Origin: a virus | Lineage: Duplodnaviria > Caudoviricetes | Strand: one strand, 5' to 3' | DNA length: 64,000 nt | Virus record (IMG/VR): IMGVR_UViG_3300027764_000001 | Span: 1,302-65,301 of that record | Shown here: positions 24,155 through 52,401 of the stretch, piece after piece | How positions within the stretch are numbered: position 1 is the first letter of the stretch | How the letters are laid out: each line of letters opens with the position of its first letter | Made by a program: the position numbers and the translations under genes | Notes under the pieces: generated by a model | What the model saw: only the letters and a program-made list of their open reading frames with translations | Database searches by the model: none | What the model was told of the DNA's origin: nothing

Positions 24155-27100
24155 ATGGAAGAAACATATACTTTACCTGACGGTTCAACAGTAGACATAT
24201 CTAGTTATTCTCAATTCCAGAAGACTAACTTCTTAATAAAGAATCCTGGAGCAAAAAAGTCGAAAGGTACTGCGAAAAGTGCGACCGCATTACCGAAAAA
24301 TCAAGCACTAGGTCAAAGTACGGAATCCAAGCAGGCAGGTGGTTCTTCGGGTTCCAAAAAATTTAGACTACCTACAGAAGCAGAGATAAATACACAGAGA
24401 AAGAAAGGTTTAATGCCTCCTCCTTCTACTATACGTTTTTCAGAAGGCGAATATAATGCTGATAGTTTTGAATATGATTTAAGAGGAAATCTAAGTAAGA
24501 AAAAAAATAAACCTTTACCAGAGTATAAATATGGTGAAGGTTACAAATCTAAACACGAAGAAACAAAAGAAGTCTATTTAGCTAGCAAAGATAATGCAAA
24601 AGTAAAAATAAATAAACCAATATCTACAACTACTAAATATATACAACAAGATATTGACGAAGCAGAAGTACCAGATCCATTTTTAAAGGATTTAAAAATA
24701 AAACAATTAGAAAGAGAAAAATCAAGAACAGATTCTGAACTAGAACATCCTTACTTGTATTATTCTTCTTTTAATCAAGAAAAACCAGACTCTTTTGTTA
24801 AAGACAACTTTAACGAATTAGAGTTAGAGGACATGGGTATAAATGCACAAGACTTTGATGGTTTCTTAAATAAAAATAAGTATAAAGAAGACTTTTTAGA
24901 TAAAGAACAAAGAGGTTTATTTACAGAAGGAACCGGCGTTTCTGGGTATGATGTAGAGTTAGCAAAAGAATTACAAAAGAAAAGATTGCTTACTTTATAC
25001 ATGTCTAATATTCAGAGTAGAGATATAACTAGACAAGTTATTAACCAAGATCTTGAAATAAACAAAGGACTTAGAGACAAAAGAGATATAAAAGAAAATA
25101 TTATTTTTGACGATAATAAGTTAATAAATTATGTAGAAAAAAACTTCCCTATATATACTCAAAAACTAAAAGAAAATGAAGTAAAGAGTAGAAAAATATA
25201 CGAAGAAGCAAAAACTGGTGGAACTGATTTTTGGAGTTGGAATACTGTTGAAAAAATAGGCAATGCAACTTGGAATGGTTTTACTGATAGAATACATCAA
25301 TTAAGTGCTACTACTTATGAAAAATTAGGCATGAGAGATCAAGCTGAGTATTCTAGATTTTTAGCAGATCAAGATGCTGTAGAGACTCCAGATGATAGAT
25401 CAGTGGGTTACGTAGGTGGTAAAGAAACTTACGTTGATGGTAAAAAATATTTGGTTAGTGCTAAAGGAGATGTATACGATGCTGATTTAAAAATTAGAAT
25501 AACAGACTTACTAGAACCAAAGAGTAGAGAAAAAATATACGATAGTTCAAAATATGGTAACAGTAGTTATATATTTAGTCCTCAAGGAGTAGCTGTAGGA
25601 ACAGCTGCTGTTATGGGAGATATGATTATACAAGCTGCTTTAACTAGAGGCGTTGGTGCTTTTGCAGGTATCGCAACTGAAAGTAGAATAGCTTTGAGTG
25701 TTGCTGGTAAACAAACACAAGCAAGTCAATTACTTAATAGCGCTTCTTCTGCTTTAAAGATGATACCAATTAAAAGATCTACTGGATATGCAATGGTATC
25801 TCAAGGAGCATTAGGATATTCACAAGGTTTTGAAGAAACATTAAAAGCAGCTAGAGAAAATGGTATAAATGACGAAGAAGCTTTTGCTTTAGCGTCTAAT
25901 GCAGCTCAAAGAATGGGTGTCTTGTATGCCACCACTGGTGTTATAAACCCACAAACAAATCTTGTTGATAATTTATTTACCGCTAAAAACGTAGTTAAAA
26001 AAGCAATAGAACAATATACTAAAACTGGTAAAAAAGGTTTTATTCAATCAATAGATGATGTTGTAAGAAACACGCCTAGAAATTTTGTTGAATTTGTTGA
26101 AGAAGGTGGAAAAGAAGTTGTGCAAGAAAACGTACAACAAGTTGGTGAAATTGCATTAAATAAAATAACAAACCTGGAAGCAGGTAAAAAAATACTTAAT
26201 GAAGAATATACTGCTAGTGATTTTATAAACACTTCTATACTTTCATTTATATCTTCTGGTTTAATATCTAAAGCAAAGTTACCTAACTTTCAACAACAAG
26301 ATAGTGATATAGATGATTTAACTTCATTAAGTAAATTAGCTCAAAATAAAGTTCAGTTCACAAAAACATTAGATGGTTTAGTTGATACTAAAGTATTTAC
26401 TATAGATGAAGCTAACAATTTAAAAGCAGATGTAGATACTTATTCTAATAATATAAACAAATTACGTAGAGACATATCTCCTTCAGCTGCTATGCCAGTA
26501 ATGAGAGAGTTAGACAAAGTAACTAAATTAGAAAATCAAAAGAAATCTGTAGACAAAGCATTTCATGAAGAAATAGATTTAGAAATAGAAGGAGTAAGAA
26601 ATAATATAAGAGATATAGTTTACAACGATCAAGTTAAATCAAAGAATCAAACTATATTTACCGCAATAAAAAAAGGAATTGTAAAAGACTTAGATCTTAA
26701 GACTTTTAGCACGACTGCAGAAGTAAAAGCATACTTAATGGAAGAACTTGGTTTTGATGAAAAATCAGCTGAGTTTCAGTCCAATCAAGGTGGTGCTATC
26801 ATACCTTATGAGGTATTAGCGGGCTTTTCAAATAATCCAGAATCAATAAAACCAGGTCAAAAAATAATAGTAGTAAACGAACAAAAAGGTAGAGAATCAG
26901 GTGCTAGTGAAATAGTACAACATGAATTTCTACATGGTTTAATACACGAAACAGTTAAAGATGATCCTGAAATACAAAAACTTTTAGGAGTAGCTTTATC
27001 TAAAGAATTGTTTAAACTAAAGGATATTGTTGAAGCAAAAGGAACTAAAGATAATCCAGTGCCTGATGAGTTTGTAAGAAGATTTGGTAAGTATGTTGAA

Positions 27101-30100
27101 TTTTATGATAAATTACAATTAAAAGAAAGAGTACGTTATCAAACTTTTGAAATAAGCAAGCAAGAGTATGAAGATAAAGTGAATCAACTTCTAGGTAATC
27201 AATGGGAAGAGGTTTTGACTTTATACTCAGATGCTATAAGTAATGGTACTGTTAAGTACGATGAAGGGACTTTTACTAGATTAAAAGATGTGCTTAGACA
27301 AGTTTTACAAAGACTTGGTATTAAAGATATTAAATTTGAATCTGGTAAAGATGTTTATAATTTTATAAAAGATTATAACAAAAGTGTTGAAACAGGAAAC
27401 TTTGGATTAGCAATGAAAAAAATTGGAAACTCAGGTGCCGAAGTTAACAAAGAAAAACTAAGACAAGAAACAGGTATAAAACCTTTTGAGTCAAAATTAA
27501 TAAGAAGACAAGACGACGTGTCTACTGATGGTATTAAATTCTCTTTATCAGAAAGAAAATCATCTGAAGACATAAAGAAAGACGTTAATAAAAATTATGA
27601 TAAAGATAAATGGGGAGCAGGTAGTGCTTTAAGCAGAGATGAAAACCCAGCTATTGAAAGAGTTCTTTATGACGTACTTAGTGAATACGATTATATAATA
27701 AAAGGTAAAGCAAAAGTATTAAACTTTGCTAACACTCCAGGTTATAACGACCTAGATATGATTAGTGAAACATATATACAATTAATGCCTCATATTAGAA
27801 ACTTTAACAAAGAGTTTCTACAAAAAAGAGAAGAGTTCAAGAAAGAACTTATAAGTAAAGGTTTAGAACCTAATAGCGCGGAACTTAAGCAAAAACTAGA
27901 AGAACAAGACAAGAAAGGTTATGAAGGTAAAAAAGGCATTGTAAAAGAAAATGATGACTTAAATGCTTGGATAAACTCTCAACTTGTGAACAAAATGAAT
28001 GCCGCTATGAAGTCAGGTAATGTTTCTGAAGAAGCGTTTACAGACGATATTGAAGGAGAAATGTTTAAAGAGTCTAGAATAGTAGATGGTTTTACAGGCG
28101 ATCAAAGTTATTTAGAAGACGAAGGGGATAGTGTTTTTGACTCAGAAGAAGATTTTGCTCAAGAACAAAACCAACTAGCTGTATTACTTAGTGATCCAGT
28201 ATATAGATTCGTAGATGAAAAAGGAAAACCAATAGATATTGAAACAGTACCATTTGGTGGTTTCTTTGTTACTGATATTTCAGACCCTAGTATTGCTGCT
28301 AATATAAAACTAAGAACAGAAACTGATCCTACTAAAACAGCAGAACTTAAAAGAGAACTAAACGATTTAAAAAGAGGTTTAGAATTACAAAACAAACAAG
28401 ACATTACATTTGAAGAAAAAGAAGAATTAAAACAATTAAAATCTTTTAAATCTTACGATCTTTCTACTGGATTAATGGTAAACACATTTAAAGCTCTTTC
28501 TATTCAAGATACACCTGCTAAAATCATTACTGATGAGGTTGGTAGAGAAATATTAAGATCTCCAAATATTCAAACATTAGAATATAGAAATTTTAAAGAG
28601 AAACTATCTACAACGTCTAAAACAATGGCGAGAAGAATGACTTTTAAAAACGGCCCAGAGATTGAGTCTTTAATGTATAATGAATGGAAATTACTTTACG
28701 ATGTTATAAATCATCCTGTAGATCCAGTTACTGGGCAATCTAGTTATGCTTCTAAGAAGTTACCACCTAGATTAAAAGAAACAGATGATAAGGGAAATTT
28801 TACAAAAATAAAAAATATAACTAGAGTTAGATTTCTACAGTCTTATTATGGAATAGATGAAGCTACTCGTATAATAAAAATATACGGAGGTGCTAATGTA
28901 GATAAAGAACTAAATGAGTTTGAGGATCCAGAATTAAGTGAAAAAGATGGTAACTCACTAAGACCTACAACTTACTTTGATAGAAGAACAGCTTTAATGG
29001 AATTATTCGGAGATGTTTTAGTTTTACAAGAAGCTAGAAGACTTATACGTAATCCTGAATTTTTAGATAGAGTAGCTGGAAGAAATGTAAACCTATATAA
29101 CGAATTAAAAGATGATGTAATTAGAGCTAGCGTTTTAAATGACATGTCTAAAGGCAAAAGTGATTTAGTTAAATTTAGTTTAGCAGATAAAAAAACCGTT
29201 AAAAGAAAACCAGACTATACTACTGCTAGTCCAATTAATACTCTTGGTAATGATCCTTTTTACTCTTTAAAGTATGTTGAATTGTTTAGTAGTCCTTCTG
29301 AACTTGTTAAATTTAGTCTTACTGATATCGAAGAAGAAGCAGAAGAACCTGCATCTAAATTTAAAGATTTTTTATCTAGAATAGACTTTAGAGAACTTAA
29401 TGATGATGATGGTTGGATATTAAAAACACTTCAACAATCAGACTTACAAGACGATAATATAAATACAAAAAAACTTCATACATTAAGATCTACAAGTGAA
29501 TTGTACGATGAAATTTCTGATAGATTTGACAATTTATTTGGTTCTTTGTCTGTTACAAATTCTGAAAATCAGTGGATAATTAAAGAATATAAAGATGGTT
29601 ATATAGATGCCATGCTTGATAGATCTTTAACAATTCCAGAAGAAGCTTTCAACGAACCGTATTGGAGTAAGATGAAAATTGATGAATCTTTTAGAAAAGA
29701 AGAATTACTAAAAGTGCAAAATCAACAAAGAATAGCTTTAATATTATTATCAGAAACTGTTAATGAGATTGATTCTTTTGAATACAGTATGTTCTTTAAG
29801 TACTTGTTAATGAAGGATGCGTTAAGTAATAGATATTATCCTGATGGAGAAAAAGGTATAATAAAAAAATCTATTAAAAAATCTGAATATAGAACAACAA
29901 TACAACCTATACAAGACTATAGCAATCTTGATTTTGTAAAAGAAATTCAAAAAGACTATAAGTACAAAAAAAATGTTGGTATTGGCGCTATATATTTAGC
30001 TAAAAAAATGACCGAAGTGCCTCTTGATTTTTCTAAAAACTTTATTCAAGAAGTTGACTATAGAGATAATCTATATAAGTTTAATAGAGGAGAAGAACAA

Positions 30101-33100
30101 TCAGAAATAAATGCCTTAAATAAATTAGCATCGTATAGTGTTAAGTCTGGTTATCCAGGTTCTTCTTGGTGTACAGGATCTTCTAAATTTATGGCTGCTA
30201 ATCAGTTAAAAGACGGAGACTTCTATATATTTGCTAACAAGCAAACTAAAATACCTACATTAGCCGTAAGATATGTTGGTGACAATATAGCTGAAATGGC
30301 TGGTACTAGAGATAACCAAGATTTATGGAAACAAGACTTTGACCAAGTTGAGTTTGCTATAAACAATTTGCCTGCTAGTAATAAAGAAATAGCATTAAAC
30401 CAAGTTGAAATAGCAAAAAGATTATCAAAAGTTACAGGTAAAGAAATAAAAGAAATAGAAGAAGAAAAAGTTTTAAACAAACTAATATTTTCAAAAGAAA
30501 TAAATATACATTTTGAAAAAGATCTTTATCAAAAATCAAGATCTGCTTTTTTGAAGTTAAAAGAATTAGCTTTACAGAAAGTTATGAAAGCAGGGGGTTC
30601 ACTTTTAGAACTATATAAAACAGGTTTTAATATTGATGAAAACGGAACTAGTTTTGTTACTAACGAACTTGACTTAGGAACGATAAATAAAATAGATGAA
30701 TTTACTGAAAATGTAAGCATTAAATTACAATACGCCGTAGATGAAGCAAACGATATAGAATTTTCAGAAAATGTAATATTCCCTTATGAGTATTTAGAAT
30801 TAAATGAATTAAAGAAAGCGAAAATATTAAGTATAAATGGAGTAACAAGTCTAACAATTCCAAAATTAACTGAAGCTGAATTACTTTCCGTTGATTTTGA
30901 TAAATTAGTAGAAGAACAATCTGCAATTAGTTTGCCTTCAAAAACTAACTATAATATAGATTTTCAATTTAGCGATAACGATCAAGATGAAATAAGCGAA
31001 TTTTTAGTTTTTGATAAAGACATTGACATGTCTGATTTTGACTTAGGACTATATTTTAATGAGTTAGAAATGGAAGGTATTAATTTGTCTAATGTACAAA
31101 ATGCTAAAGAAATAAGTATAAGTGCTGCTTTCGTAGATTACATTTATTTATCTAAAAAAATAAAAACATTATCAACAGAAAATTTGTATGGTAAATCAAC
31201 TAGTAGCATTGAAGTACAAGGAGTAGAAGAAATAGATACTTTAAAAATGGAATGGGCTAATTTTGATGGAATTCTTTTTGAAGATTTAAAAAAAATAGGT
31301 ACTGTAGAAATAACTTTAAGAGATGAATATGATGATGACCTTGAAGATATAATAAGAGGCAGCGAGGTATTTAGATTAGCAGATAATGTTTTCTTTACTT
31401 TTGAAGATTACGAAAGTAGTAATTTTAAAACAAAAACTTTAAAATCTAAATCTTTACCATCTGTTAAATTTAGTTTAGCAGAAGAAAATAATGGTAAATT
31501 AAATCCTTTATTAAAAGGTCTTCCTTTTTCTAAACAATGGATTGTTGCTAGAGATATAGATAATGCTATCAACAAAGGTAGAGCTGCTGAAGGAATAAGA
31601 ATACCATTTAGTGTGCCAAGTAGATCTAAATTCTCTGACGAAGAAACTGCTTATTTTATAATACAAAAAGTAGCAGAAGGTTTTAATGATTTTGAATTTA
31701 GAGTTAAGAAAAATGCTAAAGGACCTTTAACTAAACAAGTACTAGATGCGTTAGATGTTAAATCTAAAGAGTATCAAAACAGAGCGGAAAGAAATAACAA
31801 CATAGAGAAAACTATAAATGACTTTATAGAGGAAAACAAAGGCGTTGCTTCCAGTGAGACTTTCTCTCCTGAGACTGCTAAAAACATTGGTAAAAACATT
31901 GGTAAATATGAAATGTACTTACCACCAGAAGATGAAGATTTCTTAGGTTTGCTATACACACTTGCAGGCGCTAAAGGTAAAAAAGGTGATGAGCAATTAA
32001 AATTCTTAACAGACACTTTGCTAAAGCCATATAGTGACGCAATGCTTAACTTAATGAAGGCAAGACAGACTATGTATAAAGACTGGCAAGACTTAATTAA
32101 TAAAAAGCATAAAGGTATAAGTAAATTGCTTAAACAAGATTCAGGATATGGAGGTTATTTAGTTGACCAAGCGGTTAGGGTTTATCTTTGGAGTACTGCT
32201 GGTTACGATATACCTGGATTAGATAAAAAAGATTTATTCCACTTAAGAGAAATAGTAAGAACTAATCCTAAACTAAGAACTTTTGCTGCTGATGTATCTT
32301 TACTTTCTAAACAAGCAAATGGCTATACTGAACCAGATAGTAACTGGGGATTTGGAAGTGTGGTAAGTGATATTAACGGAGTTATATCTAAATCTAATAG
32401 AAAAAAGTATTTAGAACAATGGCAAAATAACATTGATAAAGCTTTTTCTAAAGACAACTTAAGTAAGATAGAAGCTGTTTATGGAAGAAAGTATGTTAAA
32501 GCTCTAAGAAATACACTAGATAGAATGAAGACTGGTAGCAACAGAGCAGAAGGATCAAATGATTCATTTCTTAACTGGTTAAATGGAGCTACTGCAGTAA
32601 CGATGTTTACTAATATTAGGTCTGCTTTTCTTCAAACATTAGGTGCTGTCAATTATTTAAACACATCTGATAATAATATAGTAAAAGCTGGCGCTGCACT
32701 TTTAAACGTACCACAGTTCCTTAAAGATTTTAACACTATATGGAATTCAGATTACTCTAAAGATAGAAGATCAGGTCTTACCAATGATATAGCCGAAGCT
32801 GAATTAGCACAGGTAATGAATGATCCTAGAAACAAAAGTGTTATAGATAAGTTCAAAGCAGCTAATTACTGGATATTGAAAAAAGGATATGGTCCTACTA
32901 GATTTGCAGATAGTTTTGCAATCGCTTTTGGTGGTGCTACTTTTTATAGAAATAGACTAGACGCTTATACTAAAAAAGGTATGAGTGAAGCAGATGCTGA
33001 AAAAGAAACAATGCGTGACTTCTATGAAATATCAGAATCTTCACAGCAATCAGCAGACGTTTCTAAAATATCAATGAACCAAGCAAGTACAAAAGGGCGT

Positions 33101-33853
33101 TTATTACTATCTTTCTTAAATACACCATTTCAGTACTCGAGAATAATAAAGAGATCTGTTATTGATTTAGCTAAGGGAAGAGGAGATGTTGCAAATAATA
33201 TTGCTAAGATAGTTTACTATTCTACTATTCAAAACATTATGTTTAACTTCTTACAAAATGCTTTATTTAGTATTATATGGGACGATGATGACGAAAGAGA
33301 TGAAGCAGGTAATGGTAAATTTGATAAAGCTAAGATCAGAGCAGTAAGTGGATCTTTAGATACATTATTAAGAGGTTCTGGATTACAAGGAGTAATTATA
33401 TCTACCGTTAAGAATATAATAATAAAATGGTATGAGAAGAGTGGTGATCCAAAAGGATATGGAGATGTATTATTAGAAGCTGCAAACCTTGCTCCTTCTA
33501 TAGGTATTAAAGCGAGAGCTTTGGCTAAGTCTTATAAAGCTGTTGAATACAATAAAGATGAGATAAAGTATAAAGGATTTAGTCTAGATAATACTTACGC
33601 ATTAGAAGCATTGACATCTTTGACATCAGCCGCAACAAACGTACCAGTAGATAGATTAATGCAGAAATTTGAAAATGTATCAAACGCATTAAATGAAGAA
33701 TATGAAGCATGGCAAAGAGTTGCTTTTGCGATGGGTTATAATAAATGGAACTTAGGTATTAGCGACGAGAAAAATGTGTCAACAAATGCCGCGGGTGAAT
33801 TGAAGATACCAGAGTTAAAACAAGCTGAATTAAAAATGCCAGAATTAAAATAA
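24155..33853 (+). CDS. giant multidomain internal virion (ejection/polyvalent) protein
   Basis: 3232 aa, last gene of the virion module; HEFLH zincin motif, sigma-region-2-like segment, SSWCT..DFYIF domain, four (V/I)KFSL motifs, helical C-terminus. Confidence 0.75.
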   Translation: MEETYTLPDGSTVDISSYSQFQKTNFLIKNPGAKKSKGTAKSATALPKNQALGQSTESKQAGGSSGSKKFRLPTEAEINTQRKKGLMPPPSTIRFSEGEYNADSFEYDLRGNLSKKKNKPLPEYKYGEGYKSKHEETKEVYLASKDNAKVKINKPISTTTKYIQQDIDEAEVPDPFLKDLKIKQLEREKSRTDSELEHPYLYYSSFNQEKPDSFVKDNFNELELEDMGINAQDFDGFLNKNKYKEDFLDKEQRGLFTEGTGVSGYDVELAKELQKKRLLTLYMSNIQSRDITRQVINQDLEINKGLRDKRDIKENIIFDDNKLINYVEKNFPIYTQKLKENEVKSRKIYEEAKTGGTDFWSWNTVEKIGNATWNGFTDRIHQLSATTYEKLGMRDQAEYSRFLADQDAVETPDDRSVGYVGGKETYVDGKKYLVSAKGDVYDADLKIRITDLLEPKSREKIYDSSKYGNSSYIFSPQGVAVGTAAVMGDMIIQAALTRGVGAFAGIATESRIALSVAGKQTQASQLLNSASSALKMIPIKRSTGYAMVSQGALGYSQGFEETLKAARENGINDEEAFALASNAAQRMGVLYATTGVINPQTNLVDNLFTAKNVVKKAIEQYTKTGKKGFIQSIDDVVRNTPRNFVEFVEEGGKEVVQENVQQVGEIALNKITNLEAGKKILNEEYTASDFINTSILSFISSGLISKAKLPNFQQQDSDIDDLTSLSKLAQNKVQFTKTLDGLVDTKVFTIDEANNLKADVDTYSNNINKLRRDISPSAAMPVMRELDKVTKLENQKKSVDKAFHEEIDLEIEGVRNNIRDIVYNDQVKSKNQTIFTAIKKGIVKDLDLKTFSTTAEVKAYLMEELGFDEKSAEFQSNQGGAIIPYEVLAGFSNNPESIKPGQKIIVVNEQKGRESGASEIVQHEFLHGLIHETVKDDPEIQKLLGVALSKELFKLKDIVEAKGTKDNPVPDEFVRRFGKYVEFYDKLQLKERVRYQTFEISKQEYEDKVNQLLGNQWEEVLTLYSDAISNGTVKYDEGTFTRLKDVLRQVLQRLGIKDIKFESGKDVYNFIKDYNKSVETGNFGLAMKKIGNSGAEVNKEKLRQETGIKPFESKLIRRQDDVSTDGIKFSLSERKSSEDIKKDVNKNYDKDKWGAGSALSRDENPAIERVLYDVLSEYDYIIKGKAKVLNFANTPGYNDLDMISETYIQLMPHIRNFNKEFLQKREEFKKELISKGLEPNSAELKQKLEEQDKKGYEGKKGIVKENDDLNAWINSQLVNKMNAAMKSGNVSEEAFTDDIEGEMFKESRIVDGFTGDQSYLEDEGDSVFDSEEDFAQEQNQLAVLLSDPVYRFVDEKGKPIDIETVPFGGFFVTDISDPSIAANIKLRTETDPTKTAELKRELNDLKRGLELQNKQDITFEEKEELKQLKSFKSYDLSTGLMVNTFKALSIQDTPAKIITDEVGREILRSPNIQTLEYRNFKEKLSTTSKTMARRMTFKNGPEIESLMYNEWKLLYDVINHPVDPVTGQSSYASKKLPPRLKETDDKGNFTKIKNITRVRFLQSYYGIDEATRIIKIYGGANVDKELNEFEDPELSEKDGNSLRPTTYFDRRTALMELFGDVLVLQEARRLIRNPEFLDRVAGRNVNLYNELKDDVIRASVLNDMSKGKSDLVKFSLADKKTVKRKPDYTTASPINTLGNDPFYSLKYVELFSSPSELVKFSLTDIEEEAEEPASKFKDFLSRIDFRELNDDDGWILKTLQQSDLQDDNINTKKLHTLRSTSELYDEISDRFDNLFGSLSVTNSENQWIIKEYKDGYIDAMLDRSLTIPEEAFNEPYWSKMKIDESFRKEELLKVQNQQRIALILLSETVNEIDSFEYSMFFKYLLMKDALSNRYYPDGEKGIIKKSIKKSEYRTTIQPIQDYSNLDFVKEIQKDYKYKKNVGIGAIYLAKKMTEVPLDFSKNFIQEVDYRDNLYKFNRGEEQSEINALNKLASYSVKSGYPGSSWCTGSSKFMAANQLKDGDFYIFANKQTKIPTLAVRYVGDNIAEMAGTRDNQDLWKQDFDQVEFAINNLPASNKEIALNQVEIAKRLSKVTGKEIKEIEEEKVLNKLIFSKEINIHFEKDLYQKSRSAFLKLKELALQKVMKAGGSLLELYKTGFNIDENGTSFVTNELDLGTINKIDEFTENVSIKLQYAVDEANDIEFSENVIFPYEYLELNELKKAKILSINGVTSLTIPKLTEAELLSVDFDKLVEEQSAISLPSKTNYNIDFQFSDNDQDEISEFLVFDKDIDMSDFDLGLYFNELEMEGINLSNVQNAKEISISAAFVDYIYLSKKIKTLSTENLYGKSTSSIEVQGVEEIDTLKMEWANFDGILFEDLKKIGTVEITLRDEYDDDLEDIIRGSEVFRLADNVFFTFEDYESSNFKTKTLKSKSLPSVKFSLAEENNGKLNPLLKGLPFSKQWIVARDIDNAINKGRAAEGIRIPFSVPSRSKFSDEETAYFIIQKVAEGFNDFEFRVKKNAKGPLTKQVLDALDVKSKEYQNRAERNNNIEKTINDFIEENKGVASSETFSPETAKNIGKNIGKYEMYLPPEDEDFLGLLYTLAGAKGKKGDEQLKFLTDTLLKPYSDAMLNLMKARQTMYKDWQDLINKKHKGISKLLKQDSGYGGYLVDQAVRVYLWSTAGYDIPGLDKKDLFHLREIVRTNPKLRTFAADVSLLSKQANGYTEPDSNWGFGSVVSDINGVISKSNRKKYLEQWQNNIDKAFSKDNLSKIEAVYGRKYVKALRNTLDRMKTGSNRAEGSNDSFLNWLNGATAVTMFTNIRSAFLQTLGAVNYLNTSDNNIVKAGAALLNVPQFLKDFNTIWNSDYSKDRRSGLTNDIAEAELAQVMNDPRNKSVIDKFKAANYWILKKGYGPTRFADSFAIAFGGATFYRNRLDAYTKKGMSEADAEKETMRDFYEISESSQQSADVSKISMNQASTKGRLLLSFLNTPFQYSRIIKRSVIDLAKGRGDVANNIAKIVYYSTIQNIMFNFLQNALFSIIWDDDDERDEAGNGKFDKAKIRAVSGSLDTLLRGSGLQGVIISTVKNIIIKWYEKSGDPKGYGDVLLEAANLAPSIGIKARALAKSYKAVEYNKDEIKYKGFSLDNTYALEALTSLTSAATNVPVDRLMQKFENVSNALNEEYEAWQRVAFAMGYNKWNLGISDEKNVSTNAAGELKIPELKQAELKMPELK
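29168..29187 (+). repeat. 20-bp direct repeat, copy 1 (encodes VKFSLA)
   Basis: GTTAAATTTAGTTTAGCAGA, identical at 31463-31482. Confidence 0.9.
31463..31482 (+). repeat. 20-bp direct repeat, copy 2
   Basis: GTTAAATTTAGTTTAGCAGA, identical to 29168-29187 and in the same frame (offset 2295 nt). Confidence 0.9.
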
Positions 33854-43280: not shown

Positions 43281-44063
43281 TTACATGAAGTCAATTACTT
43301 GTGACGAGTCGACGTTAGCTATTAATTTTGAAATAGCAAACTTTTTTAATTCTGAAACCCTTACATAAGCACTTGGACCTTTGAAGTCTAAAATTTCTGC
43401 AATTGCATTTGCTGAATGCTTATCACAGTCTAAACCATAACTAAGTCTTAATACATTTGCTTCAACATCTGTTAAATGTTTCTTAAATATACTAAGTAAA
43501 TAAGCGTTTAGTAAATCTATATTATATTCAGTTGATTTGTCTTCATATTGATACATACCTTTTTCTGAATTAGGATAGAAATCTGAAGAGTCAGCGTCGT
43601 TAAAACCAATGTCTATACTTTTAAATATACTATTAAAAAACATTTCAAGTATCTGTTTGTCTTCAGGATTTTTACGTATTTCATTTATTTTATATTCAGG
43701 GATTCTCATTGTCCCTCTATATACATTTATCGCATATCTAATGCGTCCTTTAATACGTTTAGATAGAAATGATTTGATTGTCTGTTCTTGGTTCTCAGAT
43801 GTGTTTATTTTATCCCAGTCTATTTTATCTACTGACATTATTAATCCTATACTACCTTCTTGTATTAAGTCATTTATATCTAAAATACCAGAAGCTTGGT
43901 CTGCAGTTGAAAACTTTTTAGCTATATTTTCTACTAATGGAAGGAACATGTTTATTAGATCATCTCTTGAATACTCATTGTATTGCTTTTGTTCTAATCT
44001 ACCAATAGTCTTTTTTACATCATTTTTATATATTAGATGGTTTTGTAAGTTATACTTTTTCAT
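43281..44063 (-). CDS. phage RNA polymerase sigma-70 family factor
   Basis: Region 2 LPLVENIAKKF..DLIQEGSIGLIMSVDK; region 4 HTH LTDVEANVLRLSYGL..IAEIL..RVSELKKFAISKL. Confidence 0.88.
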   Translation of the reverse strand: MKKYNLQNHLIYKNDVKKTIGRLEQKQYNEYSRDDLINMFLPLVENIAKKFSTADQASGILDINDLIQEGSIGLIMSVDKIDWDKINTSENQEQTIKSFLSKRIKGRIRYAINVYRGTMRIPEYKINEIRKNPEDKQILEMFFNSIFKSIDIGFNDADSSDFYPNSEKGMYQYEDKSTEYNIDLLNAYLLSIFKKHLTDVEANVLRLSYGLDCDKHSANAIAEILDFKGPSAYVRVSELKKFAISKLIANVDSSQVIDFM

Positions 44064-45544: not shown

Positions 45545-45578
45545 GATATTATCTACAAACTTTTCTGTTAAGTCCGTG
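45545..45578 (-). promoter_or_regulatory. early promoter motif copy 1
   Basis: Minus strand CACGGACTTA-N15-GATAATATC, 22 nt before the ATG at 45523. Confidence 0.75.
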
Positions 45579-45689
45579 TAGTATTTACATTCTACCTATT
45601 TCTTTCATCTTCAATACTAAGAAGATAATAATGATAGTAACATAGAATATTACTAGTTTTATTAAGTTTAATACATTTTTTATCATAAA

Positions 45690-45962
45690 TTAATCTAATA
45701 AAATCATATATGCTTTAGGGTTGTTTTTAATAAACCAGTCAATAGACATGTCAAAGTCACGTATTATGCCTTTGCTTAATATTCCTACATTAGAAAAAGC
45801 TTCACAACCTTTTATAAAGTCGTATATACTTAAACTAATTGGATCTAGAAATACTGATTCGCCAGAAAAAGGATTAGTAACTTCTTCACCTTTGGTGTAA
45901 ATTTGTCCTTCAAAGAATTCAGGAACAATTAATTCTTTTCCAAATATATCTTTATCTTCCAT
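45690..45962 (-). CDS. hypothetical protein
   Basis: 90 aa ORF. Confidence 0.65.
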   Translation of the reverse strand: MEDKDIFGKELIVPEFFEGQIYTKGEEVTNPFSGESVFLDPISLSIYDFIKGCEAFSNVGILSKGIIRDFDMSIDWFIKNNPKAYMILLD

Positions 45963-45972
45963 AATAACTGTT

Positions 45973-46188
45973 TTAAGTGTTATCTTTTTCTATTAAAGTA
46001 GCTATATAATTCCATATATCTATTTCTTTTTTAACATGATTAATAACGCCTTCTAATTCATTTAGCGTTATTCCACCTGTTAAACCCATGTGATAATCTC
46101 TTTCTAAAGACACTAATTCAAATCTAAGTGAAGATAGTTTAGAAAAAGCTTTGTCACTAGTTTTTTCTTTTAATTCTATAATATTCAT
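45973..46188 (-). CDS. hypothetical protein
   Basis: 71 aa ORF, coupled. Confidence 0.6.
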   Translation of the reverse strand: MNIIELKEKTSDKAFSKLSSLRFELVSLERDYHMGLTGGITLNELEGVINHVKKEIDIWNYIATLIEKDNT

Positions 46189-46189
46189 A

Positions 46190-46492
46190 TTACTGAGTTA
46201 ATAAAAGTTCTACTTCTCTAGCTGCTTCAAATGTTATAGCAGAACTATTACCACCAATATGCCATTCGATTTCTTCGTCTGTTTCAATAGTTCTATATTC
46301 TTTCCAGTCATAAATTGTAAAAACATCACCATTATCTGTTTCACATGTCCATTCGAAGTTTACTTTATCGTCACCATCGTTTGATTGGTATTGTGCTTGT
46401 CCTAATGTTCTATTTAATTCATCTACTGTAGCGTATATAGTAGAATTGTGGAAACTAGTTCCATCTGCTGTTTTTTCTGTTAATTTTGCCAT
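46190..46492 (-). CDS. hypothetical phage protein
   Basis: 100 aa; GTSF..DKVNFEW..FTIYDWK..WHIGG. Confidence 0.65.
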   Translation of the reverse strand: MAKLTEKTADGTSFHNSTIYATVDELNRTLGQAQYQSNDGDDKVNFEWTCETDNGDVFTIYDWKEYRTIETDEEIEWHIGGNSSAITFEAAREVELLLTQ

Positions 46493-46547
46493 GATTTTTT
46501 GTTTTAAGTTTTAGTTTTTTTTAAGTTTTAGTGTGTATAGCAAAGTG

Positions 46548-46766
46548 TTACTCTACTATTTTAATGAAATTACCTTGTTTGTCATGTAATGTAGTAAGTT
46601 CGAATTCTCGATCTAAATGATCAAAAGCATGGTCAACCATTAAGTGTATGGCGCCAGCGTTAAATTCAGCAAATGTACCTTTAAATCCTTTTAACAAAGC
46701 ATACTGATAAAAGAAATTTACATCTACTATTTTTTTATTTCTCATTTTTATATAATCCTCTTTCAT
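46548..46766 (-). CDS. hypothetical protein
   Basis: 72 aa ORF. Confidence 0.55.
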   Translation of the reverse strand: MKEDYIKMRNKKIVDVNFFYQYALLKGFKGTFAEFNAGAIHLMVDHAFDHLDREFELTTLHDKQGNFIKIVE

Positions 46767-46780
46767 AAAACGAATGTATT

Positions 46781-46810
46781 AAAAAGACCCACCTTTCACA
46801 GTGGGCCCTT
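46781..46810 (-). terminator. Rho-independent terminator after the vWA gene
   Basis: Minus strand AAGGGCCCAC-tgtgaaag-GTGGGTC-TTTTT. Confidence 0.65.
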
Positions 46811-46817
46811 TAAATTA

Positions 46818-48248
46818 TTAAAAAGCGTTACTTTGAGCTTTTTGAGCTCTTTCAGCCATTTGTGCTTTTTTACCATCATCAATGATAGTAGTACCTTCTT
46901 CTGCATAAGCAGTAACAGAACAGTCACGATCAACTCTAACTTGTTTACCACCAGTTTTAATACATAGTGTTTTTAACTCGTCGCTGAATTCCATTAATGA
47001 TATTGCGTTTACTTTATAGGGTAAAGTATCATAGCCAACTTCATCTTGACCATCATTAATAATTAATATCTCTGGTTTTTCTTGTGATAAATCCATATTT
47101 AGATTACCTAAATGTTGATTACTAATATCTTCAGATATACTAGTTACAATACCACCAATATCAGTTGTACCACCATTAGGATCATTAGAAAACCAAGACC
47201 AGAAGTTCATTACATCTTCTCTGTTTTTAAGATGATGAAACTGTAATTTACTTGGACTACATACAAAGTAGCTAAAGAATACTTCAGCTTCTTCTTTCAT
47301 AACGTATTTTAAACGGTCAATGAGTATAGCATTCACCCATATCTGTTTTTCAGGATAACCCATACTACCAGAATAATCTAATAATATAATTATCTTTTGT
47401 TTTTGTTCTTTTTTGTCTACAGGTACGTTGACTGTTAAGTCTTTAGTTAAGAACTTAGTACGAAAGTTTGGAAACATTTTTTGATATAACTCTATGTTAC
47501 TGAACTGAGCATAGTCACGCATAATCTTTTTAGCGTATTGGTCAGAGTTAGATACAATTTTTTCTTCAACTTCTTTTTCTACTTTGAATTGATCACCAAG
47601 ATTACCAACGATAGATATTTTATCTAATATATCCATTTTACGCTCTTTACTTAATTCATTAAAGTCAAGTTGATCGTTAATGTCTGCGTCAGAATATATT
47701 TTTCTATCGAAGTTTAAACTAGTTTCAAAATCAACATCTTGTTCTTCACCACGATCACCAGTCTCGCTGTTGCCACCTATTTTTTTGTAAATGGCAATAG
47801 CTTGTTCTAGTGGAGTATTACCTGGAATAAAAGTATCAAACAAAGAATCATACAATTGTTTTTTCTTTTCATAGTCTGCAACTTCGCTGTCAGATAATTT
47901 ACTTGTGTCTGAATATTTTTCTTGAAAATAATCACGCTCATCAATCATCTTGAAATAACAAACTCTAGCTAGTTCTTTGATAGTGTCTATTGACTTATCA
48001 ATCCATACGTGAGTCTTAGCTTTAATGTCTGACTTAGTAGGCGTTATATAAGTAACTGGGTCTTTGATTGATAAATTAGAATTATCATCTAACACACTAG
48101 CGCCATTCCAAGAATAATTAGACCATACACTTGGTTGCCAAACATTTTTTGTATAAGATTTAGAACCACCGTAACCATAACCGTAATCATCATAACCATC
48201 GTTGTAACCATCGTTACTGCCGTAGTATTTACTCCAATATTTACTCAT
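46818..48248 (-). CDS. von Willebrand factor A (vWA) domain protein
   Basis: MIDAS motif LLDYSGSM, GGTTD, ILIINDG; Y/G/D-rich N-terminus. Confidence 0.85.
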   Translation of the reverse strand: MSKYWSKYYGSNDGYNDGYDDYGYGYGGSKSYTKNVWQPSVWSNYSWNGASVLDDNSNLSIKDPVTYITPTKSDIKAKTHVWIDKSIDTIKELARVCYFKMIDERDYFQEKYSDTSKLSDSEVADYEKKKQLYDSLFDTFIPGNTPLEQAIAIYKKIGGNSETGDRGEEQDVDFETSLNFDRKIYSDADINDQLDFNELSKERKMDILDKISIVGNLGDQFKVEKEVEEKIVSNSDQYAKKIMRDYAQFSNIELYQKMFPNFRTKFLTKDLTVNVPVDKKEQKQKIIILLDYSGSMGYPEKQIWVNAILIDRLKYVMKEEAEVFFSYFVCSPSKLQFHHLKNREDVMNFWSWFSNDPNGGTTDIGGIVTSISEDISNQHLGNLNMDLSQEKPEILIINDGQDEVGYDTLPYKVNAISLMEFSDELKTLCIKTGGKQVRVDRDCSVTAYAEEGTTIIDDGKKAQMAERAQKAQSNAF

Positions 48249-48268
48249 GTTATATTATTTAAGGTTAA

Positions 48269-49306
48269 TTACTCCATTATTGAAGTTACAGTTTGTTTCT
48301 TAGATAAACTTGTATATAATTCTGTAGCTGTTTTGATTAACGAAGCGTGAGTTGAAATAAGATCGTCTGTTACAGTTAATTTTTTCATTTCTTTAATACC
48401 AGTAGCCAGTAAACCAAGATCATTAGTGAATTTAGCTTTTTCCTCAGTAGTAATCATATTATTACTTTGTAATTGACTGATAGTAACATCAAGATCGTTA
48501 GATAATTTTCTGAATTTTAACGTACTTTGATATTTTTTAAGCGTATCAGCGATTAACGTAGGTTTTTTAGCAAACTCTGCGATAAAACTTAACGAGTCTG
48601 GACCACATTCTTGATAAACTGTATAAGCAGTTACTGCAACACGAGGTGATATTGTAATACCACCACGGTGATATTCCTGTAATAAGAATGGAATAATAGG
48701 ATCTATATTACCTTCGCCAAACTTTGTTTCTAATAATTTATTATAACTAGCTTCAGTATAATTATCCCATATAACATTTAACTCAAGTGGAAAACGTTCC
48801 ATTAAAGCTTTTAACGATGCATTTTTAGAGAATTCTTCACGAGTACGATTAGTACAACAGATAATGAATTTTGTTTTGATAGGGAAAATCTGCGTACCAT
48901 TTCTGAACACTTTAGAAGATAAAATATCTTTTAATTGTTCTAATATAAAATCAGGAGCATCAAATAATTCTTCGAATATAACATACTCGTTATTCATAAA
49001 AGAGTTTTCAACTAAATACTCGATTTTACCTGTTTTTTCGAATGTAGGTATATCAAGACCACCGAATAATCTATCTGTAGTCATACCTGTACCCATTGTA
49101 ATAACATAAGGATCAATACCTTTTTCAGCAAGATATGCTAATGTAAGTTCTGATTTACCGTGACCACCTGGACCGTAGAGTACGATGTTTTTACCAGTCT
49201 TAAGACCGATGTCTAAGATACTAAGTGATTTATCCATAAATACGAAGTCAGCACCTACGCCTTGGACTTCTTCTACTACTGCTTTTGTTTTTCTAGCTGT
49301 CGCCAT
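48269..49306 (-). CDS. MoxR/RavA-type AAA+ ATPase
   Basis: Walker A YGPGGHGKS, DRLFG, Walker B variant IFEEL, CTN sensor, ALMERF; paired with vWA. Confidence 0.85.
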   Translation of the reverse strand: MATARKTKAVVEEVQGVGADFVFMDKSLSILDIGLKTGKNIVLYGPGGHGKSELTLAYLAEKGIDPYVITMGTGMTTDRLFGGLDIPTFEKTGKIEYLVENSFMNNEYVIFEELFDAPDFILEQLKDILSSKVFRNGTQIFPIKTKFIICCTNRTREEFSKNASLKALMERFPLELNVIWDNYTEASYNKLLETKFGEGNIDPIIPFLLQEYHRGGITISPRVAVTAYTVYQECGPDSLSFIAEFAKKPTLIADTLKKYQSTLKFRKLSNDLDVTISQLQSNNMITTEEKAKFTNDLGLLATGIKEMKKLTVTDDLISTHASLIKTATELYTSLSKKQTVTSIME

Positions 49307-49357
49307 AATTAAAGGGTTTAAAGGGTTAAATAAATAATTACCAACGTGGTAACTTTG

Positions 49358-49422
49358 TAACTAAGAGAGGATCGAACTCTCAACGCCAACTCAGTCGGAG
49401 CGTCATCTGCCAAGATTTAGTT
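49358..49422 (-). ncRNA. short tRNA-like RNA (65 nt)
   Basis: Closing stem AACTAA/TTAGTT, ATCT-TGGC-AGAT arm, long central arm, T-arm GAGAG-TTCGATC-CTCTC. Confidence 0.5.
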
Positions 49423-49455
49423 GCCGCACTATGTCAAAGTGTGTATAGCAAGCCG

Positions 49456-49566
49456 CTAAGACTCGTCTGGTTCTGTTTCAAACTCACAATGTTCAAGACA
49501 ATCAGCGCATAATTCATCAAATATGTAGTGTCTACCAGCACTACAACAATTACTATATTCTTCCAT
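49456..49566 (-). CDS. small Cys-rich acidic protein (36 aa)
   Basis: Hand-translated MEEYSNCCSAGRHYIFDELCADCLEHCEFETEPDES. Confidence 0.5.
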   Translation of the reverse strand: MEEYSNCCSAGRHYIFDELCADCLEHCEFETEPDES

Positions 49567-49587
49567 AATATTTATTTGTTTTAAATG

Positions 49588-49797
49588 TTACTTTCTACGC
49601 CACGACTTGTGAACCGCTGCGCTTAGTTCTTGACTTACAATCTGAATTGTATTACCGGTTTTATGTTCTATGATAGGTATATAACTATACGTTTTCATAG
49701 TTGAACAGTTTACACATTTAGTATAACCTAACTCTATCCTAACAGGATGCATTTGACTTCCACATCTACAATACATAATATTAATTTTTAAATTCAC
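49588..49797 (-). CDS. zinc-finger protein
   Basis: CRCG...CVNC; downstream of promoter copy 2. Confidence 0.6.
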   Translation of the reverse strand: MNLKINIMYCRCGSQMHPVRIELGYTKCVNCSTMKTYSYIPIIEHKTGNTIQIVSQELSAAVHKSWRRK

Positions 49798-49798
49798 A

Positions 49799-49831
49799 TA
49801 TATTATCTTGCTATTTTATTAATAAGTCCGT
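49799..49831 (-). promoter_or_regulatory. early promoter motif copy 2
   Basis: Minus strand ACGGACTTA-N15-GATAATAT. Confidence 0.75.
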
Positions 49832-49960
49832 AAGGCATTCAGGTGTATCTTCTAATCTGTATAATTCAATTATTACTTGTTGTTGGTACATAGTCAAACA
49901 GTCATAAGACATATCGAAATATTCTTTAGATAATGAATCTAAACTTGCCATAATACTCAT
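49811..49960 (-). CDS. small hypothetical protein (49 aa)
   Basis: ATGA overlap with the upstream stop; MSIMASLDSLSKEYF... Confidence 0.45.
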   Translation of the reverse strand: MSIMASLDSLSKEYFDMSYDCLTMYQQQVIIELYRLEDTPECLTDLLIK

Positions 49961-50277
49961 GATAATAAACTTACTTTAGCTAATAAATCTTTTGTTTCTC
50001 TTAAAATCATTTTATCTTTGATAGTAAGATCTAATCCACCTTTTATATTTCTATAAAGATCGTTTACACTACGGTGATTATAATCTACTGGCTCGTTATA
50101 TGTACCGCAATGACTTTTCTTATAACCACTTGCTTGATAAAGATAATCACCACTGTAATCACCATTTTCTTTTAAGAAAGATTTTATCTGATTAGTTATA
50201 TCGTTTGCAAAATCTCTAATCTTTTGATCTACTTTATCTTCGATCAATTTGTCTAATTTACCTGTTGTATTTGACAT
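49957..50277 (-). CDS. hypothetical protein
   Basis: 106 aa ORF. Confidence 0.65.
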   Translation of the reverse strand: MSNTTGKLDKLIEDKVDQKIRDFANDITNQIKSFLKENGDYSGDYLYQASGYKKSHCGTYNEPVDYNHRSVNDLYRNIKGGLDLTIKDKMILRETKDLLAKVSLLS

Positions 50278-50298
50278 AGTTATATAGTTTAATGTTAG

Positions 50299-50370
50299 TA
50301 GTCAGAGCAGGAATCGAACCTGCATTGTGGGCAACTGATCGGCCTGAGTTTACCATTACTCCTTCTGACT
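50299..50370 (-). tRNA. tRNA-like gene with a non-canonical anticodon arm
   Basis: Acceptor AGTCAGA/TCTGACT+A, D-arm GAGT-AATGGTAA-ACTC, T-arm GCAGG-TTCGATT-CCTGC; anticodon arm GGCCGATCAGTTGCCC is imperfect. Confidence 0.65.
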
Positions 50371-50378
50371 CCGGTTGT

Positions 50379-50900
50379 TTAGTTTCTGCGTATTGTACTA
50401 ATTAAATCGCTAAACAAAGCGTGTATAGCAGCTAATTCTGGCATCTCATTACTAGCTTTTGTTTCAGTAATTTTGTTTAATGGTTTAATCCATTTGCCTT
50501 GTTTAAACACTTTAATGTTACTGTAAAAGAAATCACCGTTAGCTAATAACTCATTAGGATAACCTTTTACAATTTCACCGTGCTTAGTCATGACACCAAT
50601 AGCGAAACCACGTCTTTCAGCTTCTTCAGTGTATACATCTAAATCATTTTTTGTCTTACTACTACTAGATCGTTGCTCGTCTATGTCGTCCCAAAACTGT
50701 TGACCTTCAGGCGATTGACTCCAGCTAAAAGCCATAGACAATGGTAGATCTTGATTAATACACCGAGTACCGTCTTCGATACCTCTTTGTCTTACTACGT
50801 TACTAAATACTTTTTCCCAGTGCTCTTTTGGCACTTCACTTAATTGAATTCCCATGATAATATAATTTAAAGTTAATGATACAAATTTATTCTTCGCCAC
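50379..50900 (-). CDS. hypothetical protein
   Basis: 173 aa ORF (start may be the internal Met). Confidence 0.65.
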   Translation of the reverse strand: MAKNKFVSLTLNYIIMGIQLSEVPKEHWEKVFSNVVRQRGIEDGTRCINQDLPLSMAFSWSQSPEGQQFWDDIDEQRSSSSKTKNDLDVYTEEAERRGFAIGVMTKHGEIVKGYPNELLANGDFFYSNIKVFKQGKWIKPLNKITETKASNEMPELAAIHALFSDLISTIRRN

Positions 50901-51111
50901 GTCTTACGTGTCTATGATTCCACAATCTAGTACAAGAGAATTTCTTGCTTTTACTGAATGTAGACTTCTGCCTAATTATTATACTGTTGTATTCTATGTT
51001 TGTTAAACCGCTACACTTTTTCTCGTTAGTGTTATTAACTAGATGTTGTTCTATTCTTTGTCTACGAATATTGTTACAATAATCCATAGCTGCTACTGCT
51101 GTTGCTTCCAT
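50887..51111 (-). CDS. hypothetical protein
   Basis: 74 aa ORF. Confidence 0.55.
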   Translation of the reverse strand: MEATAVAAMDYCNNIRRQRIEQHLVNNTNEKKCSGLTNIEYNSIIIRQKSTFSKSKKFSCTRLWNHRHVRRGEE

Positions 51112-51113
51112 AG

Positions 51114-51302
51114 TTAATTATTTATTTCTAAATTTAATTTCTCAGTTGTCATATACTCTACGTTACTGATACTAAAATTATCAGTTATATAATCTTCTAT
51201 ATATTCTTCAATATCTAAACCATCTGGTATCTTATGTATTATAACTCTACCATTCATAAAATCTAATATGCTTAAATACATAGTTATGTTCTTTGCACCC
51301 AC
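51114..51302 (-). CDS. hypothetical protein
   Basis: 62 aa ORF. Confidence 0.55.
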   Translation of the reverse strand: MGAKNITMYLSILDFMNGRVIIHKIPDGLDIEEYIEDYITDNFSISNVEYMTTEKLNLEINN

Positions 51303-51392
51303 GCTGCTGCGTTAGCTAAATTAATAAATGTTACTTTGAACTTTAATAGTAATACACTGATAATGTTTGCTTGCTTTTTCATAGTTAATTGT

Positions 51393-51575
51393 TTAAGGGT
51401 TGTTATATACTAATTCTAATATTTCTTCTAATATAATACTGCGCTCGTAATTAGAATTCCAACTACACTGAGTGTAAATGTATTCTGATATCTCTCTGAC
51501 TATCTGGTCTCTGCTTCCGCCGCATTTGACGAAAGCTTTGAAACCATCGATAGCATCATTAACCTGCTGGCTCAT
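51393..51575 (-). CDS. hypothetical protein
   Basis: 60 aa ORF. Confidence 0.55.
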   Translation of the reverse strand: MSQQVNDAIDGFKAFVKCGGSRDQIVREISEYIYTQCSWNSNYERSIILEEILELVYNNP

Positions 51576-51576
51576 A

Positions 51577-51783: not shown

Positions 51784-51825
51784 AGTAAATAGGTATTAAA
51801 GATTAATATTAAATTTAATTTCGAA

Positions 51826-51860
51826 TATATTATCTGACTTGTTTATTATTAAGTTCGTGA
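51826..51860 (-). promoter_or_regulatory. early promoter motif copy 3 (variant)
   Basis: Minus strand TCACGAACTTA-N15-GATAATATA. Confidence 0.7.
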
Positions 51861-52368: not shown

Positions 52369-52401
52369 CTTTTGTAGTGTATATTTTCACTAAAAAAAGA
52401 T

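Follow-up and report, generated by a model that had tools for sequence, protein, structure and literature searches.

We analysed 64,000 nucleotides of the IMG/VR virus record IMGVR_UViG_3300027764_000001 (positions 1,302 to 65,301; hereafter the window), which come from an uncultured marine flavobacterial phage, and find that a giant protein of 3232 residues encoded in this window very probably contains a true, very divergent homologue of domain 2 of the sigma-70 family (sigma2, comprising regions 2.1–2.4). We rate this homology so highly because of a fold search, the register of profile alignments, the effect of excising a 46-residue insert and the existence of natural relatives that carry the domain without that insert. 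The domain is closest to extracytoplasmic function (ECF) and gp55-type sigmas, and its insert is specific to one lineage. An earlier note on this DNA had pointed by eye to a segment resembling sigma region 2 at 27657-28015 (residues 1168-1287, following the first IKFSL motif), and the peptides that it quoted are found as written in the giant open reading frame (ORF; 24155-33853, plus strand). Because a probably virion-borne protein holds a putative polymerase-docking domain, the phage may seize the host transcription enzyme at entry.

A predicted sigma domain 2 fold in the giant protein

The record is 65,301 bp long with direct terminal repeats, and the window covers nearly all of it. In the giant protein and its homologues, modules follow one order: module 1 (~1130 residues, with an HEFxH motif), a K(F/L/Y)SL junction, module 2 (~545 residues), VKFSLAE, a set of cassettes, and module 4 (~795 residues). 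An AlphaFold model of module 2 built on a 42-sequence alignment (mean predicted local distance difference test, pLDDT, 78) consists of a helical domain at approximately residues 8-165 (pLDDT ~83-89), a disordered acidic linker and an alpha/beta domain, here called domain B.

We compared this model with 48,161 PDB representative chains using VIA-wide, a fold search independent of Foldseek. Twenty-five of the 27 best rows concern the helical domain (residues 3-170), and 23 of these 25 are sigma-factor domain 2, with Z scores of 5.2-6.6, root-mean-square deviations (rmsd) of 3.1-4.3 and 78-105 residues aligned. The top row is 7d7d_F (Z 6.6; rmsd 3.3 across 94 residues at 16% identity). This chain belongs to the T4 gp45-dependent activation complex, and we take it to be T4 gp55 from the entry title and its position. 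For SigR (1h3l_B; Z 6.5), 78 of 78 residues could be aligned. The other sigma2 rows include CnrH, SigC, sigmaE region 2, RpoD, sigmaS, sigma28, SigB and pro-sigmaK, as well as sigma32, SigW, SigA domain 2, WhiG, BldN, SigH, AlgU and others. As Z scores of 5-6.6 lie in a range where the tool itself warns of common helical arrangements, our argument rests on the identity of the matching chains and not on the score. Domain B, searched identically as an internal control, returned an unrelated mixture (the EMSY ENT domain, designed repeats, eIF2B-epsilon and DpnI). In the ESM Atlas, which compares language-model features, 11 of 30 matches for the first domain fall in clusters carrying Sigma70_r2. 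The structural match to sigma region 2 for which the earlier note had called was therefore found, in VIA-wide and on a predicted model.

Profile alignments point to the same domain. Three sigma profiles were used: the phage's own sigma family, Bacteroidota primary sigmaA (loci L032-L046 and L049-L059), and 19 ECF-type sigmas from three Flavobacteriales genomes. With all three, hhalign places the stretch D-L-D-M-I-S-E-T-Y-I-Q-L-M-P-H-I-R-N-F-N in the register of region 2.2 (P 0.0024-0.047; 0.0024 against the phage-sigma plus sigmaA profile), where its counterparts are DLVQETF...F-D in ECF sigmas, DLIxEGNxGLI..FD in Bacteroidota sigmaA and DLIQEGSIGLI in the phage sigma. When the giant protein was scanned in 62 sliding slices, the three best overlapped the 2.2 site (P ~0.002) and the next best stood at 0.03. 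The ECF profile aligns with the 2.2 helix at P 0.011 and, collinearly and 50 residues onward, with a tryptophan helix at P 0.054; given the whole 544-residue module, its best match is N-A-W-I-N-S-Q-L-V-N-K-M-N-A-A-M-K on the 2.3/2.4 helix, where W falls on W and N on N at +7 (ECF pattern sf.aWi.RI..N..iD..Rk). The alignment to the phage's own sigma that the earlier note had drawn by eye is not significant in a direct comparison (best BLASTP E 3.9 for the segment), but its register was reproduced by hhalign against the three profiles, and was recovered again with the insert excised, in natural insert-less relatives and in the fold search.

A loop insertion that conceals the domain

The domain lies below every routine annotation threshold because of a single loop insertion. 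PHROGs gave no sigma match on the giant protein or on the segment, and a six-frame search of the genome for Sigma70_r2 recovered the free sigma gene only. With 46 residues excised, the ECF profile yields one ungapped 50-column alignment at P 1.2e-5 (probability 81%), a value picked from a scan of 100 boundary pairs whose median P is 9e-4. The six best pairs each delete exactly 46 residues, and the same scan on nine control slices of the giant protein reached best P values of 0.021-0.25. The gain is confined to the ECF profile; against the phage-sigma/sigmaA profile, excision brought none. Among the invariant residues of the segment (R87, N88, F89, N90, D124, G127, Y128, G133, E137, N138, L141, I145 and N146 in module numbering), those from D124 to N138 belong to the insert, which is itself structured.

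Nature has made the same excision. Two more distant phages of the same group, G021 and G036, carry the domain without the insert (...KFDPSKNDSLYGYINAQLANRM..., where the giant protein reads ...MEEMTSYVKVSMLPYIQKFDPSKNDSLYGYINAQLANRMKAALKSG...). Their 2.2 helix ends in the classical F-D-P, followed by eight residues and then the aromatic helix, within the pattern F-D-P-x5-L-Y-G-Y-I, and MAFFT places the extra residues of the window's clade between F-N/F-D and the E-N/K-N that stands ahead of the aromatic helix. The module's hidden Markov model (HMM) matches the second half of the domain in these two phages (E 8e-11 and 5e-9), the 2.3/2.4-like helix being the best-conserved piece in distant giants. 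With G021 as master sequence, and hence with no chosen boundary, the ECF profile aligns at P 0.0014 over 56 columns. Judged by its alignment to a merged profile (P 1.9e-4), G024 probably holds a further diverged, insert-less copy; the copy in G008 is doubtful, and none is detectable in G010. The 'charged insert' of the earlier note is hence upheld, by excision and by the insert-less relatives alike, as an interruption of ~46 residues between regions 2.2 and 2.3. It sits in the 2.2-2.3 loop, which in ECF sigmas presumably helps to form the pocket that receives the flipped -10 base and sets -10 specificity.

Several results weigh against the identification. Pfam Sigma70_r2 (PF04542), at E up to 10, matches neither the whole protein nor a 240-residue segment nor the insert-less relatives; a whole-protein profile against all PDB sequences returned nothing but a chance gyrase row at E 0.11; and the Foldseek comparison suggested by the earlier note, against PDB and BFVD, failed to give anything below E 0.09. 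Module 2 is also undetectable in the syntenic giants of cultured phages. The structural evidence consists solely of predicted models from 42 related sequences, and the Z range and the selected excision P value given above are to be counted on this side as well.

Compared with ECF (group 4) sigma2 domains of known structure (SigR 1h3l, SigC 2o7g, sigmaE 2mao and CnrH 4cxf), the embedded domain has the same predicted helix topology, a region 2.2 in register (DMISETY here, DLVQETF in ECF sigmas, ending in F-N or F-D), and the shared aromatic residue with Asn at +7. Unlike the sigma2 of sigma-70 factors, it falls below Pfam and HMMER thresholds, contains the 46-residue insert, is followed by no sigma4, and starts at residue 1136 within a chain of 3232 residues rather than belonging to a free protein. 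T4 gp55, the best structural match, is likewise a phage-encoded sigma2-only module without region 4, but is a small free protein that is made during infection and serves late promoters together with gp33 and the gp45 clamp.

The giant protein as candidate virion cargo

The sigma2-like domain belongs to the conserved core of the giant protein, whose expression is late. The giant protein looks like a polyvalent protein, one that would travel inside the virion and enter the cell together with the DNA, because of its operon-closing position, its HExxH motif, its cassettes bounded by (V/I)KFSL and its single cysteine in 3232 residues. From gene position and by analogy, we think it rather likely that the protein is packaged. 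The virion block starts with terminase and portal genes, and several PHROG 'virion structural protein' families precede the giant ORF, which sits 15 nt past the tail genes and closes the late operon. Giants at the same position carry the annotation 'structural protein' in Elemovirus (gp18, 3694 residues) and, owing to similarity to a phi18:1 protein, in Cellulophaga phage phi38:1 (gp101); the gene at that position in the Manatee Spring phage (3859 residues) has an uninformative product name. When Elemovirus gp18 and phi38:1 gp101 were searched by HMM, the sole match was a weak one to the HExxH region of gp18.

Table 1. Positions of the features discussed, counted from the first nucleotide of the window.
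Feature	Position	Strand	Basis or remark
Giant ORF, 3232 aa	24155..33853	+	final gene of the virion structural operon
HEFLH (HExxH) motif, module 1	26921..26935	+	candidate zincin-like processing peptidase
First (V/I)KFSL junction (IKFSL, aa 1127-1131)	27533..27547	+	boundary of modules 1 and 2
Sigma2-like domain, aa 1136-1293 (module residues 8-165)	27560..28033	+	fold search, hhalign, ESM Atlas
Region 2.2-like helix ...DLDMISETYIQLMPHIRNFNKE	27746..27814	+	counterpart of the helix that binds core in true sigmas; alignment to ECF sigmas, Bacteroidota sigmaA and phage sigma
46-residue insert, aa 1221-1266	27815..27952	+	two charged helices and a beta-hairpin
Region 2.3/2.4-like helix DDLNAWINSQLVNKMNAAMKSG	27953..28033	+	aromatic residue with Asn at +7; aligns with ECF 70-92
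Acidic disordered linker, 30% D+E, module residues 170-223	28046..28207	+	pLDDT <50
Domain B, 321 aa, mixed alpha/beta, module residues 224-544	28208..29170	+	model pLDDT 86
Second junction motif VKFSL	29168..29182	+	motif scan of homologues
Variable cassette between VKFSL motifs (29306-29320, 31463-31477)	29306..31477	+	missing from ~2450-aa homologues
Module 4	31478..33853	+	most widely conserved part of the giant protein; E ~1e-200 in distant giants
Free sigma-70-family factor, regions 2 and 4.2	43281..44063	-	Pfam, PHROG, PDB SigA
Eight early promoters yACGGACTTA-N15-GATAATATA	45548..54083	-	motif counts

Polyvalent proteins, known from phages and conjugative elements, were described by Iyer, Burroughs, Anand, de Souza and Aravind in 2017, who proposed that their zincin peptidases process the polyprotein and that some of their modules 'jump-start transcription', with sigma never mentioned (PMC5512222). 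As in that class, we find here a giant multi-module protein encoded with virion genes whose domain content varies between relatives. The HExxH motif (HEFLHGLIHE here) occurs in all homologues sampled; across a set of 42, conservation reaches at least 90% at each of its positions H, E, F and H, and HExxH is near-invariant even in distant giants that share only that part of module 1 together with module 4. Pfam gave no peptidase match for the HExxH module, nor any match to an MPTase or LPD family. On its motif, the module is a candidate zincin-type peptidase that may process the (V/I)KFSL junctions. Homologues carry zero, one or two variable cassettes, each ending in a further VKFSL, and the middle modules vary between clades while module 4 stays constant. 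The VKFSL-bracketed cassette here (~720 residues, within the span 29168-31477) has one or two different cassettes as its counterparts in other homologues, which suggests modular exchange at the junction motif.

The protein belongs to an abundant phage family, represented in marine metagenomes by hundreds of near-complete flavobacterial phage genomes of ~65 kb. More than 100 metagenomic homologues of the giant ORF, 40-97% identical over the module 2 region, lie nearly all on contigs of ~65 kb. A phmmer search of 1.8 billion representatives matched this phage family only and did not find a free-standing form of the module; blastn and tblastn searches with modules 1, 2 and 4 against 50,697 phage records (cultured phages) gave zero matches.

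Domain B has no coherent match in VIA-wide, Foldseek or the ESM Atlas and shows neither sigma3 nor sigma4, so its fold is unrecognised; it is confined to the clade with CACGGACTTA promoters, described below, and was undetected in five distant giants. The earlier note saw no region 4 helix-turn-helix, and none is detectable beside the sigma2-like domain; region 4 (PF04545), searched in the genome at E 10, had no match, but this search missed the free sigma's own region 4 too. We also considered a virion RNA polymerase, and rejected that reading because the giant protein shows no conserved catalytic motif and its whole-protein profile matched no PDB chain. The PDB presumably includes the virion RNA polymerases of N4 and phi14:2. 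The earlier note's statement that no DxDxD motif is visible does not hold literally (there are three D-x-D-x-D strings, at residues 716, 2274 and 2287), yet all three lie in unconserved stretches. No RNA polymerase gene and no second sigma beyond the free one was found in the genome; a search of the genome for PF00940 was empty, its control being unmatched as well.

Early promoters and the free sigma factor

The phage also encodes a free sigma factor, which had been recognised in the earlier note and is real: Pfam Sigma70_r2 at E 8e-6, PHROG 351, and PDB SigA at 7e-9 with region 4.2 included. The promoter family proposed in the same note proved equally sound. Exact copies of CGGACTTA-N15-GATAAT number five where none is expected, and eight with variants, the boxes starting at 45578, 49832, 51859, 52259, 52808, 53471, 54047 and 54083. 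These promoters are, as had been stated, unlike the Bacteroidota type, for TTTG-N17-21-TAnnTTTG is not enriched (4 occurrences against 3.6 expected). The free sigma gene itself sits behind an early promoter, at 45548-45578 in the window and directly upstream of the ATG in the related locus L085. Because the gene lies behind a promoter of its own class, some factor must start the circuit.

Across 80 related IMG/VR loci centred on the free sigma, the word GATAATATA(a/t)(a/g)TG(T/A)AA is family-wide, with yAC 25 nt upstream at a fixed distance (loci L080-L158 and G008-G041). Otherwise the upstream half differs by clade, with CACGGACTTA in the group of the window and TACAAAnnAAyACGA or GGTTGACACGA elsewhere. 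Neither the free sigma nor the promoter word nor module 2 was found in the neighbouring lineages Elemovirus, phi38:1 and Manatee Spring. The word GATAATATA is invariant where the embedded domain bears the insert, lacks it or is barely detectable, and the free sigma is 57-71% identical there. This invariant -10 word and the steadiness of the free sigma, together with the -35/-10 geometry, speak for the free sigma as the main reader. Being complete, it is also the simpler one, and it fits better because the promoters have the geometry expected of sigma2 plus sigma4.

Co-variation between promoters and proteins was followed in 14 genomes, with trees of 14-17 genomes and promoter types assigned by eye from aligned sites. 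All nine genomes with CACGGACTTA (the window, G004-G006 and G037-G041) have an insert-bearing module 2 and domain B, at identities down to 45%, and all five genomes with the other box (TACAAA..AAyACGA) are without insert and domain B. One apparent exception, G007, with CACGGACTTA promoters and no module 2, was dismissed, as its linear contig ends inside the giant gene. In the module 4 tree the five other-box genomes form one clade (FastTree support 1.0), whereas the free-sigma tree divides the CACGGACTTA genomes between two separate groups, and a topology that keeps the types apart is rejected (approximately unbiased (AU) test p 9e-7, log-likelihood difference 54.6). The box therefore goes with the giant gene rather than with the entire free sigma. 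In the tree of the giant itself, however, the association between box and module 2 amounts to a single evolutionary event. Exactly one alignment column of the free sigma separates the promoter types (P/V against A/K/N/S/T): residue 230, where the 4.2 recognition helix starts, as would be expected if the free sigma reads the box. The evidence from co-variation cuts both ways between the embedded domain and the free sigma as reader.

A second repeated word occurs in the same part of the genome. The 10-mer TGCTATACAC is present seven times, always on the minus strand (41015, 43000, 44613, 46542, 49450, 50430 and 52271) and at several of these positions inside ORFs, and its inverse, TGTATAGCA, lies near 52820, 53485 and 54095, just upstream of several early promoters. 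At least four copies of TGCTATACAC occur in 50 of the 80 related loci. The word probably serves to bind a regulator or marks a second class of promoter.

How the embedded domain might act

We tentatively favour, at somewhat less than even confidence, a chain in which an ejected docking domain derived from sigma2 captures the core enzyme and the free sigma reads the promoters. The giant protein would be ejected into the host with the phage DNA, and perhaps then be cleaved at its (V/I)KFSL junctions. Its sigma2-like domain would dock on the beta-prime clamp helices of the host core RNA polymerase, the site used by every sigma2, and there compete with host sigmaA, freeing core enzyme at the entering phage DNA. 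The free sigma would then read most or all of the yACrrA-N17-GATAATATA promoters. The parts of this chain differ in their footing: packaging and ejection are suggested by context, polymerase docking by homology only, and the hand-over to the free sigma is speculative.

The embedded domain could instead, with domain B, constitute a minimal gp55-like sigma that is delivered by the virion, reads CACGGACTTA-N15-GATAAT and so bootstraps the free sigma, essentially the injected sigma factor of the earlier note. Such a factor would supply the start that the circuit needs, given that host-type promoters are not enriched and that the free sigma gene itself stands behind an early-class promoter; T4 gp55, the top structural match, is a working sigma2-only factor; the 2.3/2.4-like helix is the best-conserved part across clades; and the upstream box goes with the type of module 2 (nine genomes against five) and with the giant-gene tree rather than the free-sigma tree, at the AU p of 9e-7. 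We nevertheless consider it unlikely. The -35/-10 geometry, with its 17-bp spacer, suits a complete sigma, that is, the free one, and neither a sigma4 nor a recognisable DNA-binding fold adjoins the domain. The word GATAATATA does not change although the domain differs between clades by the 46-residue insert, at the loop presumed to set -10 specificity, or is barely detectable, the box association traces to one event on the giant-gene tree, and residue 230 in the 4.2 helix of the free sigma separates the promoter types too. In its most explicit form, with the sigma2-like domain reading GATAATATA and the insert and domain B reading the clade-specific box, a virion-delivered initiation factor seems to us similarly doubtful.

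The domain, whether derived from sigma2 or merely similar to it, might instead make no contact with polymerase and be a bundle with a structural or scaffolding part in an internal protein of the virion or ejectosome. The failure of all standard sequence tools, the modest Z scores, the fast evolution of the domain between clades and a large insert with invariant residues of its own would all suit such a bundle. We hold it to be improbable even so, since the conserved positions are those that define sigma 2.2-2.4 (D-M-x-x-E-T, F-N or F-D-P, and the aromatic residue with N at +7), the domain is kept in lineages with and without the insert, and phage lineages with the domain possess a sigma and a promoter system of their own, while neighbouring lineages are without all three. 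Still less probable, in our estimate, is that the protein is not delivered by the virion at all and is a decoy made late in the producing cell, where it would titrate core polymerase, or the site used by the free sigma, and end early transcription. Co-transcription of the giant gene with the late structural genes is compatible with a decoy, but 3232 residues nearly free of cysteine, with cassettes and at the end of a virion operon, are the standard signature of ejected cargo (PMC5512222), and the positional analogues are annotated as structural proteins.

Other features of the genome

A leftward operon (34800-49306, minus strand) encodes a class II-like ribonucleotide reductase, MazG, a primase-helicase, an ERF recombinase, a PDDEXK nuclease and a MoxR-type ATPase; among the ten proteins scanned with Pfam, DNA polymerase and RNA polymerase both went undetected. 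An intrinsic terminator between the convergent operons was looked for and none was found. Ahead of the rightward late operon, at 54330-54395 on the plus strand, stand three consecutive -10-like boxes (GGTACAAT, GGCATAAT and TGGTATAAT), which resemble neither the early promoters nor the host consensus and may represent a late promoter class. Near-identical copies of the phage sigma occur on short contigs (loci L005-L031) in metagenome-assembled genomes labelled Shapirobacteria, Aliivibrio, Clostridium, Woesearchaeota, Rickettsiaceae and others; these are binning contamination by an abundant phage group and carry no host information.

Discussion

The closest parallels are ECF-type sigma2 domains and T4 gp55 as regards the fold, and polyvalent proteins and virion RNA polymerases as regards the manner of delivery. 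The giant protein shares with polyvalent proteins, including the N4-type virion RNA polymerases fused to zincin peptidases (PMC5512222), the giant multi-module form at the end of the virion block, the HExxH motif, the cassettes and the theme of transcription jump-started by a delivered protein; unlike in those proteins, its transcription module would be a sigma-like domain that docks on the host enzyme and not a polymerase. With gp66 of the crAss-like phage phi14:2 and gp50 of N4 it has in common the gene position (in a Bacteroidota podophage) and the same proposed purpose, early transcription without new protein synthesis, but it has neither the conserved Asp triad nor any similarity to a PDB chain. 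Our search of the literature found no paper on a sigma domain inside a virion cargo protein. The nearest case is gp32 of phage SU10, a free ECF sigma detected by a single peptide in a particle preparation among non-structural proteins such as DNA polymerase (PMC4281155); this is a phage sigma seen in a virion proteome, but it stands on its own instead of forming part of a cargo protein.

Several wider points follow from this analysis. A sigma2 domain can escape routine annotation through one loop insertion. The combination of a clean promoter family with a separate free sigma makes the question of what reads the first promoter testable with three purified components. If the embedded domain were indeed an injected sigma factor, transcription of phage DNA by the host core enzyme would begin ahead of all phage gene expression. 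Phages are known to begin early transcription either from host-type promoters or by carrying a whole RNA polymerase in the particle, as do N4, phiKZ-like and crAss-like phages. A sigma-type docking domain in ejected cargo, if true, would give this abundant family of marine flavobacterial phages a third and cheaper route, in which only a handle on the host enzyme is delivered.

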